Positions 10,650 to 19,096 of a stretch of DNA of 64,000 nt are shown here, in pieces. A program made the translations under genes and the position numbers. Below the pieces are notes generated by a model, which did no database searches, was not told the DNA's origin, and saw only the letters and a list, made by a program, of their open reading frames with translations. The DNA is from Candidatus Calditenuaceae archaeon (lineage in GTDB: Archaea; Thermoproteota; Nitrososphaeria_A; Caldarchaeales; Calditenuaceae). The stretch is taken from positions 157,561 through 221,560 of the forward strand of contig JANXDI010000029.1 of assembly GCA_025059595.1 (NCBI GenBank), in the 5' to 3' direction. Numbering within the stretch: position 1 is the stretch's first letter; every line of letters begins with the position of its first letter.

Positions 10650-12221
10650 ATGGTTGAAGTAAAGTTCGAGCAGATCTCACCGGCGGACTTCTTTTACCGC
10701 AACAGGGATATCGCCGGGTTTAGCAGCCCCGCGAGGTCGCTCTACATGAGCATTAGGGAGCTGGTTGAGAACTCGCTCGATGCCTGCGAAGTTGGGAGAA
10801 TATTACCTGAGGTCTCGATAGAACTCTCCCTCGAGGGGACGGTTGGTGATAGTGCGAATGAGATTTACAGGCTTGTCGTGCGTGACAATGGTATAGGCGT
10901 TGACGGTGAATATATTCCAAAGGCTTTTGGAACTATTCTGTTCGGTAGTAAGTATGGGTTTAAGCAGTCTCGGGGCACATTTGGAGTCGGCGGGACCATG
11001 GCCCTCCTACACGGTCAGATAACCACCAACAGGCCCTTCAGGGTAATCTCGAGCAGGGGCGGAGCCAAGATATACGAGTATGAGCTGATGATTGATATCG
11101 TTGCGAATGAGCCTCGAATAATCGAGAAGAAGGTTCACGAAAATAAGGATAATTGGCGCGGCACAATCATAGACTTCACGCTCGAGGCAGACTACAGCAC
11201 CAGCAGGTCAAAGATAATAGAATACTTGAAGATGACATCCCTCATCAATCCTCACGCAAACATATCCTTCATCGACCCTAAAGGAAGATTCTATTTCTTT
11301 AGACGCTTCACTAACGAGGTCCCTGAGCCGCCGAAAGAGGCCAAGCCCCATCCTCTTGGTGTTGATGCTGAGACTGTTAGCAGAATGGCAGCGGATACTA
11401 AAACTAGGACCGTATTGAGGATGCTTATTGAAGAGTTTCAGAGAGTCGGTGAGAAGACTGCACTGGATGTGCTCAAGCTAGCTGGAATCGACCCTCAGAC
11501 AAGTCCATCTGAGCTTACACATGAGCAGATAGCCCAGCTCGTCGGAGTTTTGAGAAGCTATAAGGGCTTCAGAGCTCCAGACACAAGCTCCCTCTCCCCC
11601 GTAGGCTCCTCGTTTTTAGAGGCCGGTGTTAAGGCGCTTCTCAGACCTGAGTTTCATAGCGTCGTTCAGAGGCCTCCATCGAGTTACTCTGGTATACCCT
11701 TCATAGTGGAGGTTGCAGTCGCTTGGGGAGGGGCCATAACACCGTCGGAGGACATTCTGCTATACCGGTTCGCCAACAAGATTCCCCTTTTATATGACGA
11801 GAGGGCCGATGTTTCTTGGAAAGTAATTTCTGAGAAGATTGACTGGGCGGCCTATAAGGTGCCGAAGCTAGCCCCTCTAGCCGTCATCACAAGCATATGC
11901 TCTCCGAAAATCCCCTACAAGACGGTGGGTAAAGAGGCGATAGCGGACAGGCCTGAAATCGAGAGAGAGCTGACTCTCGCGATAAGAGAATCTGCGAGGC
12001 ATCTCAGAAACTATCTTAGCAGACTCGAGAGACGGGAGGCTGTGATAAAGAGACTAAACATCTACGCAAAGTATCTTCCAAAGATTGCAAAATTTTCAGC
12101 TGAGCTCGCCGACCGGGAGCCTCCAGAGATTAAAGGGCTTCTGAAGAAGATTGGAGTGACGGACGACATGCTGAAAGAGGCGGAGAGGAGTGAGGCTCAA
12201 GAGGCTGAGCAGATTTCCTAA
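10650..12221 (+). CDS. top6B: DNA topoisomerase VI subunit B (GHKL ATPase + transducer)
   Basis: 523 aa. Bergerat-fold motifs 'ELVENSLDA', 'VVRDNGIGV' and 'GTFGVGG'. No top6A adjacent. Confidence 0.9.
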   Translation: MVEVKFEQISPADFFYRNRDIAGFSSPARSLYMSIRELVENSLDACEVGRILPEVSIELSLEGTVGDSANEIYRLVVRDNGIGVDGEYIPKAFGTILFGSKYGFKQSRGTFGVGGTMALLHGQITTNRPFRVISSRGGAKIYEYELMIDIVANEPRIIEKKVHENKDNWRGTIIDFTLEADYSTSRSKIIEYLKMTSLINPHANISFIDPKGRFYFFRRFTNEVPEPPKEAKPHPLGVDAETVSRMAADTKTRTVLRMLIEEFQRVGEKTALDVLKLAGIDPQTSPSELTHEQIAQLVGVLRSYKGFRAPDTSSLSPVGSSFLEAGVKALLRPEFHSVVQRPPSSYSGIPFIVEVAVAWGGAITPSEDILLYRFANKIPLLYDERADVSWKVISEKIDWAAYKVPKLAPLAVITSICSPKIPYKTVGKEAIADRPEIERELTLAIRESARHLRNYLSRLERREAVIKRLNIYAKYLPKIAKFSAELADREPPEIKGLLKKIGVTDDMLKEAERSEAQEAEQIS

Positions 12222-12273
12222 ACCGGCTTTTGTTTGAGACAGAGTTTTAAGTGGATTAAGTCTCTCCTCAGGC

Positions 12274-12791
12274 ATGTCTCCCGGGGATAACAGTTGGAGT
12301 CAGAATATTGGTATAGTTTTGGTGAAACATGGTGAGCCCCCGAAGACTTCCCGAAAGACGCATTTAGGGAGTTCTTCGAGCTTTTAGTTAGGCATTGCAA
12401 AGAAGAGGAGGAGAAGCGTCTCAGGGAGCTTGAAGAGAGGATTGCCTCTTAGCCGAGAACACCTGAGAACGACCCATACTTCCGCGGTCTCAAAAGTATC
12501 GCTGAGGAACCTGAGGGGGGCTTCAGAAATGTCTCGATAGCTCTCAACGAATTTTGTAAGGCCACTCTTCTGGACGCCATCAAGGAGGCCCTCAACTCAG
12601 ACGTTGATGTCGTAGTCATATTCACGACGATGTTGACTCGCGGAGGCCATCACTCTGAAGAGGAGATATCAGTCGTCATAGAGCATGCGAAAGCCATGTG
12701 CGCGAGGCCCACACTGTATGCATGGCCAATCGACGCGGCCGATGTGGCCTCTTTTACCACTGCTCAAATTCGAAAGTTCGTGAGGACATGA
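12274..12791 (+). pseudogene. CbiX/SirB-type sirohydrochlorin chelatase-like gene disrupted by a -1 frameshift in a C5 run (12337-12341) and an in-frame TAG (12450-12452)
   Basis: Frame 1 from ATG 12274 gives MSPGDNSWSQNIGIVLVKHGEPP (CbiX N-terminal 'VLVxHGS/E' His motif), then a stop. Frame 3 from 12342 gives EDFPKDAFREFFELLVRHCKEEEEKRLRELEERIAS, then TAG, then …DVDVVVIFTTMLTRGGHHSEEEISVVIEHAKAM…RKFVRT (CbiX second His motif 'VvPlFl..G.Hv.eDIP'). Not in the ORF track because each piece is under 60 aa or interrupted. Confidence 0.5.
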
Positions 12792-12799
12792 CGCAGGGG

Positions 12800-13483
12800 C
12801 TAAAGAGTATCGAGCTTTGCTCGGGCTCTCCCCTCGCTAATTTCGATGACGGCGCAGTATCCATCCTTAGCGGGGCCCGCATTCACGACGGGCACTTCTC
12901 CAACCCTTGAGATGCTTCTAGCCTCATGAACATGGCCGCAGCAGACGATTAGCGGCTTATGGTGCTCGACGAACCTCCTAATGGACGAGCTACCTAAATC
13001 TATGCCGGAGGCCGTTTTGCTGGCCTCAACACCGTCTGGCGGCGTGTGCGAGACAAGAACCAAGTTACTCAAACCACTCACTTCAAAACTCAAAAGTATC
13101 TCTGAAATCTGGTCTTCGTTGAACTCTATCCAAGTCCCGCGGTGTGGTGTTGTTTTACTCCCTCCGACTCCTGCAAAGATGTAGCCTTGTAGAGGCAGCT
13201 TCTTGGCGTGAATGTTTACTATGTTCGACGAAGACGGTCCATATTCCAAAAGTTGTGGTGGGTCGCAATTGCCTGGGACAAAAAGGATAGGTGCCTTAAA
13301 ACCTCCCGCAATCTCCACAAGTATATTCTCAGCCTCCTCCACCGTCCCAAAGTTGGTAATATCTCCTACAACAAGGACTGCATCCGGCTTAAACTCTTTA
13401 GATTTCGCAGCTACAGCTTTCGCAGCTCTTCGAGAGCCGTGAATATCGCTAACTTGCAGCACCTTCATGACGATTAGAACCAC
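12800..13483 (-). CDS. Metallophosphoesterase (calcineurin-like, YfcE/MJ0936 family)
   Basis: 'LQVSDIHGS', 'VVGDITNFG', 'GNCD' and 'CGHVHE' motifs. Confidence 0.7.
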   Translation of the reverse strand: MVLIVMKVLQVSDIHGSRRAAKAVAAKSKEFKPDAVLVVGDITNFGTVEEAENILVEIAGGFKAPILFVPGNCDPPQLLEYGPSSSNIVNIHAKKLPLQGYIFAGVGGSKTTPHRGTWIEFNEDQISEILLSFEVSGLSNLVLVSHTPPDGVEASKTASGIDLGSSSIRRFVEHHKPLIVCCGHVHEARSISRVGEVPVVNAGPAKDGYCAVIEISEGRARAKLDTL

Positions 13484-13574
13484 GAACTGTCCGTATATTA
13501 ATCCTGCTTAACACCATTCTACTGGCAATAGATTATCCCTGATAAGGCGTCCCGTTTTGCAGGGCATGAGCGGG

Positions 13575-13582
13575 TTAAAATA
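13575..13582 (+). promoter_or_regulatory. TATA box (ttaaaata) about 24 nt upstream of the nuoL-like ATG (13606)
   Basis: Lies in a 120-nt divergent spacer. Confidence 0.3.
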
Positions 13583-13602
13583 TCAACGTCTGGAGGGAGT
13601 AG

Positions 13603-16232: not shown

Positions 16233-16748
16233 TTGCAAGTAGGCGTGGCTGAGAGGACTTTCAAGTTTCTTGTGGAGGGCGGCAAAGCGACTGCTGGGCC
16301 TCCGATAGGCCCCCTAATGACGCCGCTGGGCATAAACGTCTTGCAGCTTATCGAAGAGATTAACCAGAAGACCGCAGAGTTCAGGGGCATGCACGTGAAT
16401 GTCATAGTTAGCGTGGATACAGAGTCCAAGGCTTTCAGAGTTGAAGTAGGTGTGCCGAGCACGGTGGCCCTCATTTCTAGGGAGGTTGGTCTAGAGAAGG
16501 GGTCGGGGTCTGCTGGTAAAGAGGCTGTAGGAGACCTCTCGCTGGAGGGGCTTCTCAAGATCGCTAAGTTGAAGACTGAGCGGTTGAGAGCTAAGTCTTT
16601 AAAGGCGGCGGTGCTCTCCGTCGCTGGAACATGTGTGAGCATGGGCGTGACGATAGCCGGTAAGAATCCGAAAGAGTTTATCAAGGAGGTTAGAGGCGGG
16701 AAATATGACGACCTGTTTGCCGAGGCTACTTCTTCCTCTCAGGCCTGA
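16233..16748 (+). CDS. rpl11: 50S ribosomal protein L11
   Basis: 'FLVEGGKATAGPPIGPLMTPLGINV' is the L11 N-terminal signature. True start may be GTG 16245 (TATA 'gtatttatt' at 16212-16220). Confidence 0.9.
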   Translation: MQVGVAERTFKFLVEGGKATAGPPIGPLMTPLGINVLQLIEEINQKTAEFRGMHVNVIVSVDTESKAFRVEVGVPSTVALISREVGLEKGSGSAGKEAVGDLSLEGLLKIAKLKTERLRAKSLKAAVLSVAGTCVSMGVTIAGKNPKEFIKEVRGGKYDDLFAEATSSSQA

Positions 16749-17391
16749 GTTTAACTGGCGGGCTCATACTGAGCTTTAGGACGATTGATTTGATGTTTGC
16801 CCAGCCGTTCTCAAGCCTCGCGACGACCCTCTCTATCACTGTCCTCGCGTTATCTAATATCTTCTCAGCGGCCATCTCCTCCGTACCGACGATGCACATT
16901 ACCTGAGGCACTTTCCGAGTTCTGACCAGCACGCTTCTCCTGTGCCTGGCAGCAAACTCGTCGATGTCCACGTTTGCCGGTATCGGAGTGGGAGCTTTAC
17001 CCACGCCTCCCAGCGCGGCCCCGAGGGCTCGGGCGGCGACTGGGACGAGCTGAGGCTCGATGAGGAAAAAGTCAAACTCCCTTACTAGCTTCTTCGCAGC
17101 CTTCTTGTTCCCGATTAGTGCCTCTATCTCCTGCCTCTCAAAGACCCTGTCCACGTTGGGGGACCTAGACGCCCTGAATGCAAGCTCACCAGTAGCCACC
17201 ACGGCAATCCGCTTAGATGCGGAGCCAAGACCATGGGGAAGCTCAACAACCTCACTAAAACGTTTCTCAGGCTTGCTGACATCCACATCCTTTAAGTTGA
17301 TTACGAGTTCGACAGACTGTGTAAGCCCCCTCTTCATCTTCTTCTCGAGAGCCTCTCGGAGGCCCTTCTCCAGGTTCACGACGGTCGACAT
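16726..17391 (-). CDS. rpl1: 50S ribosomal protein L1; start taken as Met16 of the track ORF
   Basis: Aligns along its whole length with archaeal L1 (…KPEKRFSEVVELPHGLG…IAVVATGELA…FDFFLIEPQLVPV…VKLRPERKK). On the opposite strand to L11. Its 3' end overlaps rpl11 by 23 nt. Confidence 0.85.
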   Translation of the reverse strand: MSTVVNLEKGLREALEKKMKRGLTQSVELVINLKDVDVSKPEKRFSEVVELPHGLGSASKRIAVVATGELAFRASRSPNVDRVFERQEIEALIGNKKAAKKLVREFDFFLIEPQLVPVAARALGAALGGVGKAPTPIPANVDIDEFAARHRRSVLVRTRKVPQVMCIVGTEEMAAEKILDNARTVIERVVARLENGWANIKSIVLKLSMSPPVKLRPERKK

Positions 17392-17425
17392 TCCTCGGAA
17401 GACAGTGTGGCGGCTTTCTAATAGG

Positions 17426-17433
17426 TTTATAAT
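17426..17433 (-). promoter_or_regulatory. TATA box (attataaa on the minus strand) about 35 nt upstream of the rpl1 ATG at 17391
   Basis: Supports rpl1 having its own promoter and Met16 being the start. Confidence 0.3.
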
Positions 17434-17459
17434 CATTTGAGGGTTGTGTTTGTTTTGGC

Positions 17460-18170
17460 CTAGATTTTGAGAAGTATTTCCGGGTCCCTGCTAGAGCGGA
17501 TCTTTTCTCCCTCTCCCTCTTGGAGCCAAGTCATCCAGCATAGTTCGATAGGCCTCACGCCGGCCTCGTGGGCTATACTTGTTGCCTCCTCAATAAACTC
17601 CAAATCTCCCCTCACTGGGCTGAAGCCGCACTCGGTAAGCATTTTGTTTAGCACACGCTTCACGACTCTGTCGGGCATAACAGTATCGACTCCACCCATC
17701 ATCCTTAGATACTGGTAAGTCACGAGCCCTACGCCTTTTATCGAGCCTATAGGGTTGAGCCTCCATTTTTGGAGGACTGATTTGGAGGCCCAGTTCCTGA
17801 GGGCCTCCCTGTCGCTCTTACCATAGTTCTTGAGGGCCGAGGCCACTTCTTTGGCCACGCTCCAGCACCTCTCGTTTCTCCATAGATTCAGAAAGTCCTT
17901 CACGTTTATCTGTGCAAGCTGCTGAAGAGAGGCAACGGCACCGCCCTCAACGAACCTCTCAGAGAAAAGCCTAACCCTTGGAACAACTAGGTCAAAATAG
18001 TTCAGGCCGCTCGACGTTAGAGCTGCGTCGACAACCATCAGCACCACGCTACCACCCCAGCGATCCGTCTTGAGACACCTGTCGCAGGCTGCTGTGAGGT
18101 GGGGGTTTGCGGCTACCGCTTCGAGAATCTTCTTTTTCAGCCTCTCCCTGTCTCCCACATCTAGATTCAT
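17460..18170 (-). CDS. HhH-GPD superfamily DNA glycosylase, possibly AGOG-type 8-oxoguanine glycosylase/lyase
   Basis: 236 aa. Helix-hairpin-helix plus Gly/Pro…Asp motif 'SIKGVGLVTYQYLRMMGGVDTVMPDRVVKRVL'. Lys in 'IKGVG' could be the lyase nucleophile. Confidence 0.45.
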   Translation of the reverse strand: MNLDVGDRERLKKKILEAVAANPHLTAACDRCLKTDRWGGSVVLMVVDAALTSSGLNYFDLVVPRVRLFSERFVEGGAVASLQQLAQINVKDFLNLWRNERCWSVAKEVASALKNYGKSDREALRNWASKSVLQKWRLNPIGSIKGVGLVTYQYLRMMGGVDTVMPDRVVKRVLNKMLTECGFSPVRGDLEFIEEATSIAHEAGVRPIELCWMTWLQEGEGEKIRSSRDPEILLKI

Positions 18171-18185
18171 GGTCTGTTCAGATGC

Positions 18186-18195
18186 AATTTAAATA
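18186..18195. promoter_or_regulatory. Near-palindromic TATA element (aatttaaata) in the 53-nt divergent spacer between the glycosylase gene and rpl10
   Basis: About 21 nt from the minus-strand ATG (18170) and about 29 nt from the plus-strand ATG (18224). Confidence 0.35.
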
Positions 18196-18223
18196 GTTGG
18201 CTGGCGTTGCTTTAATCAAAGTC

Positions 18224-19096
18224 ATGGTTAGGGCTGCTTTGCTGCTAAGGCCGAGGGAGCTGAAGGCTAGACGTGTGGATGAGCTTAAAGAGCTTCTTAA
18301 GAAGTTTAGTGTGGTAGCCATCGTAGACCTTTACCGCTCATCGGCCGACCTGATGCACCTCTTCAGGCACAATTTCAGGGGGCAGACAGTGATAAAGGCC
18401 GCCAAGAAGACTCTAATCATCAAGGCTGCACGGGAGGTCGGACGGACGGGAATCGCGGACTATTTAGAGAAACACAAGCAGCCGGTCGCGCTGATATTCA
18501 CGAACATGAACCCGTTCATTATTAAGCTGGAACTTGATAAGGCGCGGGTCCTGACTCCACCTAAGCCCAACGAGCATGCTGATATAGACGTGGTCGTTCC
18601 GCCTATCAATACAGGGTTACAGCCTGGCCCTATTCTCTCGGAGTTCGGCAAGCTTAAGATTCCGACAAGAATCGAGGGAGGCATGATTTGGATTGCCCGT
18701 GAGACGACTGTGGCTCGGAAAGGCGAGACGATACAGCCGGCCCTCGCCTCGCTTCTGTCCAAGCTCGACATAGGTGCGGTTTACAGAAGCATCAACATCT
18801 TGGCAGCTTTTGATAGAGACCTCCTAATACCCTCAGACCTCCTTAGCATCGATATCGAGGAAACGAGGAATATGCTTTCACAAGCACACTCAACTTCAAT
18901 CGCACTCGCAACAGCAGTAGGGTACACCACCCCCGAGACAATCATACCGATACTCGTCAAGGCCCATTTCTCGGCCGTGAGCCTCTCCACCTTCACAGGC
19001 TATCCAGAAAAGGATACGATAAGCGGGATATTGGCCCGCGCGGAGGCACAGGCTACAGCCTTGTCGAAGCTTATAGAGACTCGATCAGCCTCTTGA
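18224..19096 (+). CDS. rpl10: 50S ribosomal protein L10 (acidic ribosomal protein P0); appears to lack the conserved acidic C-terminal tail
   Basis: 'VVAIVDLYRSSADLMHLFRHNFRGQTVIKAAKKTLI' and 'IDVVVPPINTGLQPGPILSEFGKL' are P0 signature blocks. Only about 290 aa and ends …KLIETRSAS. The track's TTG at 18197 is less likely than ATG 18224. Confidence 0.8.
   Translation: MVRAALLLRPRELKARRVDELKELLKKFSVVAIVDLYRSSADLMHLFRHNFRGQTVIKAAKKTLIIKAAREVGRTGIADYLEKHKQPVALIFTNMNPFIIKLELDKARVLTPPKPNEHADIDVVVPPINTGLQPGPILSEFGKLKIPTRIEGGMIWIARETTVARKGETIQPALASLLSKLDIGAVYRSINILAAFDRDLLIPSDLLSIDIEETRNMLSQAHSTSIALATAVGYTTPETIIPILVKAHFSAVSLSTFTGYPEKDTISGILARAEAQATALSKLIETRSAS

Follow-up and report, generated by a model that had tools for sequence, protein, structure and literature searches.

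A CbiXS/CfbA-like class II tetrapyrrole chelatase gene of an uncultured Calditenuaceae archaeon is probably a recent unitary pseudogene

Introduction

The class II tetrapyrrole chelatases closest to the locus described here include CfbA of M. jannaschii (6m25, 8i55) and CbiXS of A. fulgidus (2dj5), which are single-domain proteins, and SirB, the sirohydrochlorin ferrochelatase of Bacillus subtilis (5zt7, 6jv6), which is a two-domain monomer of ~260 aa. In CfbA the metal ligands are His9, Glu42 and His75 (PMC8179277). The publications found on Calditenuaceae and Caldarchaeales do not discuss chelatases or siroheme. In this study, we analyzed a 64-kb stretch of DNA (hereafter the window) from an uncultured, hot-spring-type archaeon of the Calditenuaceae (Caldarchaeales), in which an earlier note had proposed a decayed CbiX/SirB-type chelatase gene interrupted by a frameshift in a run of five C's and by an in-frame amber codon.

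Results

A broken chelatase gene between top6B and a metallophosphoesterase gene

The gap at 12222-12799 is not empty, as had been noted, and holds a broken chelatase gene at 12274-12791 on the plus strand. It is bounded upstream by the gene for topoisomerase VI subunit B (top6B, 10650-12221, plus strand) and downstream by a convergent metallophosphoesterase gene (12800-13483, minus strand), both identified with Pfam and used as synteny anchors. No other real stretch of more than 250 nt in the window lacks ORFs of 90 aa or longer; a second one was discounted as an overlap-filter artefact (ScpA).

Translation of 12274-12791 in frames 1 and 3 reproduced both halves of the gene, and all of the sequence features reported previously were verified, from the start codon to the resumption of the reading after the amber codon. 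Frame 1 from the ATG at 12274 reads MSPGDNSWSQNIGIVLVKHGEPP, and its first 23 residues (Met1-Pro23, 12274-12342) align with LVGHGEPP of intact orthologues and include the first metal-ligand codon, His19 (CAT, 12328-12330, within the motif VKHGEPP), at the position of CfbA His9. After the CCCCC run at 12337-12341 the reading continues in frame 3 as EDFPKDAFREFFELLVRHCKEEEEKRLRELEERIAS up to the TAG at 12450-12452, which is codon 60. This middle remnant (residues 24-59, 12342-12449) encodes a two-helix insertion typical of the subfamily described below. Beyond the TAG, frame 3 resumes at 12453 and runs as PRTPENDPYF...NEFC...MLTRGGHHSEEE...KFVRT to the terminator TGA at 12789-12791. This C-terminal remnant, which scores 19.3 bits against Pfam CbiX, contains the motifs PRTPENDPY, NEFC and TRGGHH, with the codons of Glu93 (GAA, 12549-12551, in NEFC) and His126 (CAT, 12648-12650, in TRGGHH) aligned with CfbA Glu42 and His75, respectively. 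All three ligand codons are thus present, and one extra base at the shift restores a frame of 172 codons.

Family identity

The assignment to the CbiX/SirB-type class II chelatases was upheld by a family HMM, by intact homologues, by the ligand codons and by the fold of an orthologue. The HMM was built from 106 outgroup members, leaving out the window and its sister clade, and searched against the six-frame translation of the window. It matched 12453-12788 (E=3.6e-33, HMM positions 60-172) and, collinear with this, 12336-12449 (E=0.008, HMM positions 17-56), with no further match in the 64 kb. The Pfam CbiX model (PF01903), which the earlier note had suggested as a check, gave a less clear outcome. 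The repaired frame scores 18-19 bits and the cutoff is 22, whereas the subfamily HMM reaches the E-value given above, and 20 of 20 diverse subfamily members pass the Pfam model. Since the window's own Pfam match is sub-threshold, the family call rests on these intact homologues.

Profile searches returned more than 2049 protein clusters of the subfamily, automatically named 'CbiX/SirB N-terminal domain-containing protein' or 'sirohydrochlorin chelatase', and 136 loci of the same family were found in representative genomes and metagenomes. Searched against solved structures in the PDB, the subfamily profile matched SirB with E-values of 2e-15 to 8e-15 and CfbA with 8.5e-11. To examine the class II chelatase alpha/beta fold we modelled, in place of the window product, its nearest intact orthologue, that of Candidatus Calditenuaceae archaeon HR02. 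The AlphaFold model of this orthologue (pLDDT 95.6) found CfbA 8i55 as its best PDB match (target-normalised TM 0.80, probability 1.0), with CfbA followed by CbiXS and then by ferrochelatases, and has two extra helices (25-35 and 41-56) that follow strand 1 and precede the first core helix. The insert-bearing CbiX subfamily spans Caldarchaeales, Nitrospinota, Nitrospirota, Sorangium, Planctomycetota, Elusimicrobia, Marinimicrobia and others, and its invariant motifs (loci L002-L137) are (W/Y)PRTPENDPY and NEFC with an invariant Cys. No solved structure was found within this subfamily itself.

Intact orthologues in the same slot

A protein search returned four uninterrupted proteins of 171-175 aa, one of them from Candidatus Calditenuaceae archaeon HR02, which align with the repaired frame over its full length at 53-56% identity. 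In five Caldarchaeales/Calditenuaceae genomes (L002-L006), an intact orthologue of 171-175 aa with 53-56% identity lies in the corresponding position, flanked by top6B and the metallophosphoesterase gene, and the gene order is that of the window: scpA, scpB, a KH protein gene, top6B, the cbiX-like gene and the convergent metallophosphoesterase gene. The flanking proteins of the window are 85-87% (top6B) and 63-65% (metallophosphoesterase) identical to those of the five genomes. In a search for closer relatives that might date the loss, nothing above 56% identity was found among GTDB representative genomes and JGI metagenomes.

In the same five loci a block of ~3 kb (7213-10880 in L003) separates the phosphoesterase gene from nuoL and contains genes for an HTH_10 regulator, a multicopper oxidase/cupredoxin protein of 495-519 aa (NirK-like) and SCO1/SenC. 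The window has only a 119-nt spacer there (13484-13602). This block of copper-enzyme genes, which adjoins the pseudogene, was therefore either lost from the window lineage or never acquired by it.

As to the source lineage, the phosphoesterase protein of the window is identical to MCS7146315.1 and MDW8072928.1 (Nitrososphaerota/Candidatus Calditenuaceae archaeon), and its Spt5 protein is likewise identical to NCBI entries from a Nitrososphaerota archaeon and a Candidatus Calditenuaceae archaeon. The source organism is also present in SRR25904938, on a 1.4-kb contig that stops short of the chelatase locus. Exact-protein look-ups of top6B, the KH protein and the 222-aa form of the phosphoesterase gave no match.

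The two lesions

The frameshift lies in CCCCCGAA (12337-12344), which is one base short. The window has GAG CCC CCG AA GAC where relatives read GAG CCG CCG AGA/AAA GAC. Inserting a C into the run, as had been proposed, would give Glu24, a residue found in 0 of 111 family members, whereas restoring the next codon would give Lys or Arg, which together occupy residue 24 in 68 of the 111 (K 45, R 23). Because Glu24 is absent from the family and Lys/Arg are common, the missing base most likely belongs to the Lys/Arg codon (12343-12344) rather than to the C5 run. It remains correct that one base restores the 172-codon frame, but a slip in the C run is not required for it.

The amber codon was borne out, too. 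It replaces a Trp/Tyr codon conserved in the family: of the 111 members, 95 have Trp here, 10 have Tyr and 3 have Arg. The codon is TGG in the sister-clade loci L006, L058 and L059 and TAC in Pelearchaeum; TAG differs from each of these codons by a single substitution. Reassignment of UAG, including pyrrolysine decoding, was considered and rejected, since TAG terminates 15 of the 46 long ORFs in the window and interrupts no other gene there.

Degree of erosion

The term "decayed" used in the earlier note fits the locus only in part. There is a modest excess of unusual residues: 25 residues of the window frame are unseen in the 106 outgroup members, compared with 13-17 in the sister sequences, and they include G18K beside the catalytic His, L80P, R58A, P97A and P133S. 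The outgroup HMM scores the window frame at 159 bits and the five sister sequences at 170-178. On the other side, divergence is not above that of the flanking genes, with a ratio of window-to-relative over relative-to-relative distances of 1.76 for the chelatase gene and 1.66-1.76 for the KH, top6B, scpB and phosphoesterase genes. Of 29 columns conserved in at least 90% of sequences, 26 are retained. Tajima relative-rate tests gave p-values from 0.005 to 1, significant for few outgroup choices, and near outgroups lean towards a faster window frame. Erosion is light, and together with the survival of all three metal-ligand codons it indicates that inactivation was recent. Judged from these substitution patterns, the locus fits a short period of relaxed constraint, i.e., a recent rather than a long-decayed pseudogene.

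Real lesions or artefact

Both lesions recur in a second, independent assembly. The Logan assembly of SRR15826899 matches the window over 6684 nt at 99.985% identity and carries the same C5 run and the same TAG. The one SNP, at 11486 in top6B (A in the window, G in the Logan contig), may alter the top6B protein, given that the exact look-up of the window protein found no match. The chelatase gene is the only interrupted gene in the 64 kb, and all 111 other family members examined, including the five syntenic orthologues, have a single uninterrupted frame. The preference for a true pseudogene over a sequencing slip was thus sustained.

It is improbable that the gene is intact in the organism and that both lesions are sequencing or assembly artefacts. 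One lesion does adjoin the C5 run, and an intact gene misread twice would look much like this one, with its ligand codons and most of its highly conserved columns in place. The Logan contig may also come from the sequencing run of the source genome itself, in which case a systematic read error could appear in both assemblies. Against this, the agreement extends over 6.7 kb with both lesions included, the lost base probably lies outside the C run, and a change of TGG or TAY to TAG is not an error of the homopolymer type. For two errors to fall 110 nt apart in the same small gene while every other gene of the window escaped would be an improbable coincidence.

Recoding and truncated products

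An alternative is that the chelatase is expressed by recoding. Either the ribosome (by a programmed -1 frameshift) or the RNA polymerase (by transcriptional slippage) would have to slip at CCC CCG A, and UAG would also have to be read through or reassigned. Re-pairing of a tRNA-Pro from CCG to the overlapping CCC is conceivable, and the downstream frame is well conserved. -1 frameshifting is known from one archaeal gene, the fucosidase gene of Saccharolobus solfataricus, which counts in favor of this alternative. The site itself argues otherwise. G CCC CCG does not have the canonical X XXY YYZ heptamer form, the 98 nt downstream of the shift fold no better than shuffled sequence (z=-0.54), and the single-frame state of every other family member examined, syntenic orthologues included, means that the shift is not conserved; slippery heptamer, stimulatory structure and conserved shift, the marks of a programmed -1 frameshift, are therefore all missing at CCC CCG A. 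TAG is an ordinary stop in this DNA, and two separate events would be needed within 172 codons. We regard recoding as very improbable, and the specific version in which -1 frameshifting at CCC CCG A plus UAG read-through still yields the chelatase at a low or regulated level as slighter still; if true, it would amount to dual translational recoding in a Caldarchaeales archaeon. Given the lesions in the Logan contig, the lack of any other broken gene and the use of TAG as an ordinary stop, a real pseudogene is far likelier than either sequencing error or recoding.

A partly functional truncated product is hardly to be expected either: the first start codon after the TAG is the ATG at 12630, so that translation could yield nothing more than a 37-aa N-terminal peptide or a 53-aa C-terminal fragment (12630-12791, MLTRGGHH...), and the latter, while it starts with ATG and includes the second His motif, would by the model lack strand 1 (His19), the NEFC strand (Glu93) and most of the Rossmann-like core, has no homologue of its length among the matches listed, and lies in a locus that gene callers left blank in the Logan contig. 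Neither fragment is a working chelatase, and the locus is non-functional as a chelatase.

Other features of the window and gene neighborhoods

Scanned against Pfam, 55 window proteins revealed no tetrapyrrole gene in the 64 kb, and Rfam found no RNA family over the window. ARAGORN reported a 95-nt tRNA-Phe at 16536-16630, within the L11 coding sequence; at Rfam gathering thresholds there is no tRNA window-wide, and the ARAGORN call is probably a false positive. In the same region (16233-19096), the ribosomal protein L1 gene (16726-17436, minus strand) is convergent with the L11 gene (plus strand) and opposite in strand to the L10 gene (plus strand). A second minus-strand ORF at 17460-18170 (236 aa) has exactly the length of the L1 gene, with no Pfam match or detectable L1 similarity.

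Across the subfamily, no neighbor conserved across phyla was found by ORF clustering at 56 loci or by a Pfam scan of the immediate neighbors of 50 family clusters. The scan used representatives of 50 non-redundant clusters at 70% identity, and its 89 neighbors included three TonB-dependent receptors and two B12-binding domains, with no recurrent tetrapyrrole genes.

Discussion

The locus is very probably a unitary pseudogene, disabled not long ago, whose parent gene encoded a single-domain, CbiXS/CfbA-like class II tetrapyrrole chelatase in this uncultured archaeon of the Calditenuaceae (Caldarchaeales). The protein once made would have had ~172 aa, including the subfamily-specific two-helix insert. 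By homology, the enzyme would have been a homodimer that inserted a divalent metal into a sirohydrochlorin-type tetrapyrrole by way of His19, Glu93 and His126; its activity, substrate and dimeric state are predictions from related sequences. A deletion of 1 nt at codons 23-24 shifts the frame after 23 residues and brings a frame-1 stop at 12385-12387, 14 codons on, and a single-step nonsense change from TGG or TAY to TAG closes codon 60. The order of these two events is something that we infer rather than observe.

Among possible functions of the subfamily, a role in F430 synthesis appears unlikely, since the present lineage and most of the bacterial members (Sorangium, Nitrospina) are non-methanogens and the NCBIfam equivalog model NF033198 for CfbA, the Ni-sirohydrochlorin chelatase of F430 synthesis, returned 17.1 bits for the repaired frame against a cutoff of 120.

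It is important to keep the finding in proportion. The feature is real but ordinary, a disabled copy of an automatically annotated enzyme family. Gene callers left the locus empty, and its annotation should read pseudogene. What it documents is that a Calditenuaceae lineage has recently lost one class II chelatase gene, which its nearest sequenced relatives retain; this is narrower than the loss of siroheme, cobalamin or F430-type metalation capacity suggested in the earlier note. Should the organism have had no other sirohydrochlorin chelatase, its siroheme-derived cofactors would have to come by a different route or from its community. The pseudogene also points to its CbiX subfamily, which is large and insert-bearing and has none of its own members among the solved structures.

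The nearest known counterparts are HRbin02_01269, a hypothetical protein of Candidatus Calditenuaceae archaeon HR02 (P0003; L003 5995-6522), and the orthologues at L002 and L004-L006, which share the slot of the window gene, 54-57% full-length identity with its frame and the motifs GHGEPP, RTPENDPYF, NEFC and MLTRGGHHSEEEI. They are intact in one frame of 171-175 codons, whereas the window gene is broken; they have Arg or Trp at codon 60 where the window has TAG, and the residue before the catalytic His is Gly in them and Lys in the window. CfbA and CbiXS show the same single-domain class II chelatase fold with aligned His/Glu/His ligands at ~21% identity to the window subfamily. Unlike them, this subfamily carries two additional helices, in an insert of ~40-45 residues that follows strand 1, together with the invariant (W/Y)PRTPENDPY and the invariant Cys of NEFC. 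SirB is the top sequence-profile match among solved structures and differs in architecture, its two domains forming a monomer, whereas members of the window family are single-domain and presumably homodimeric.
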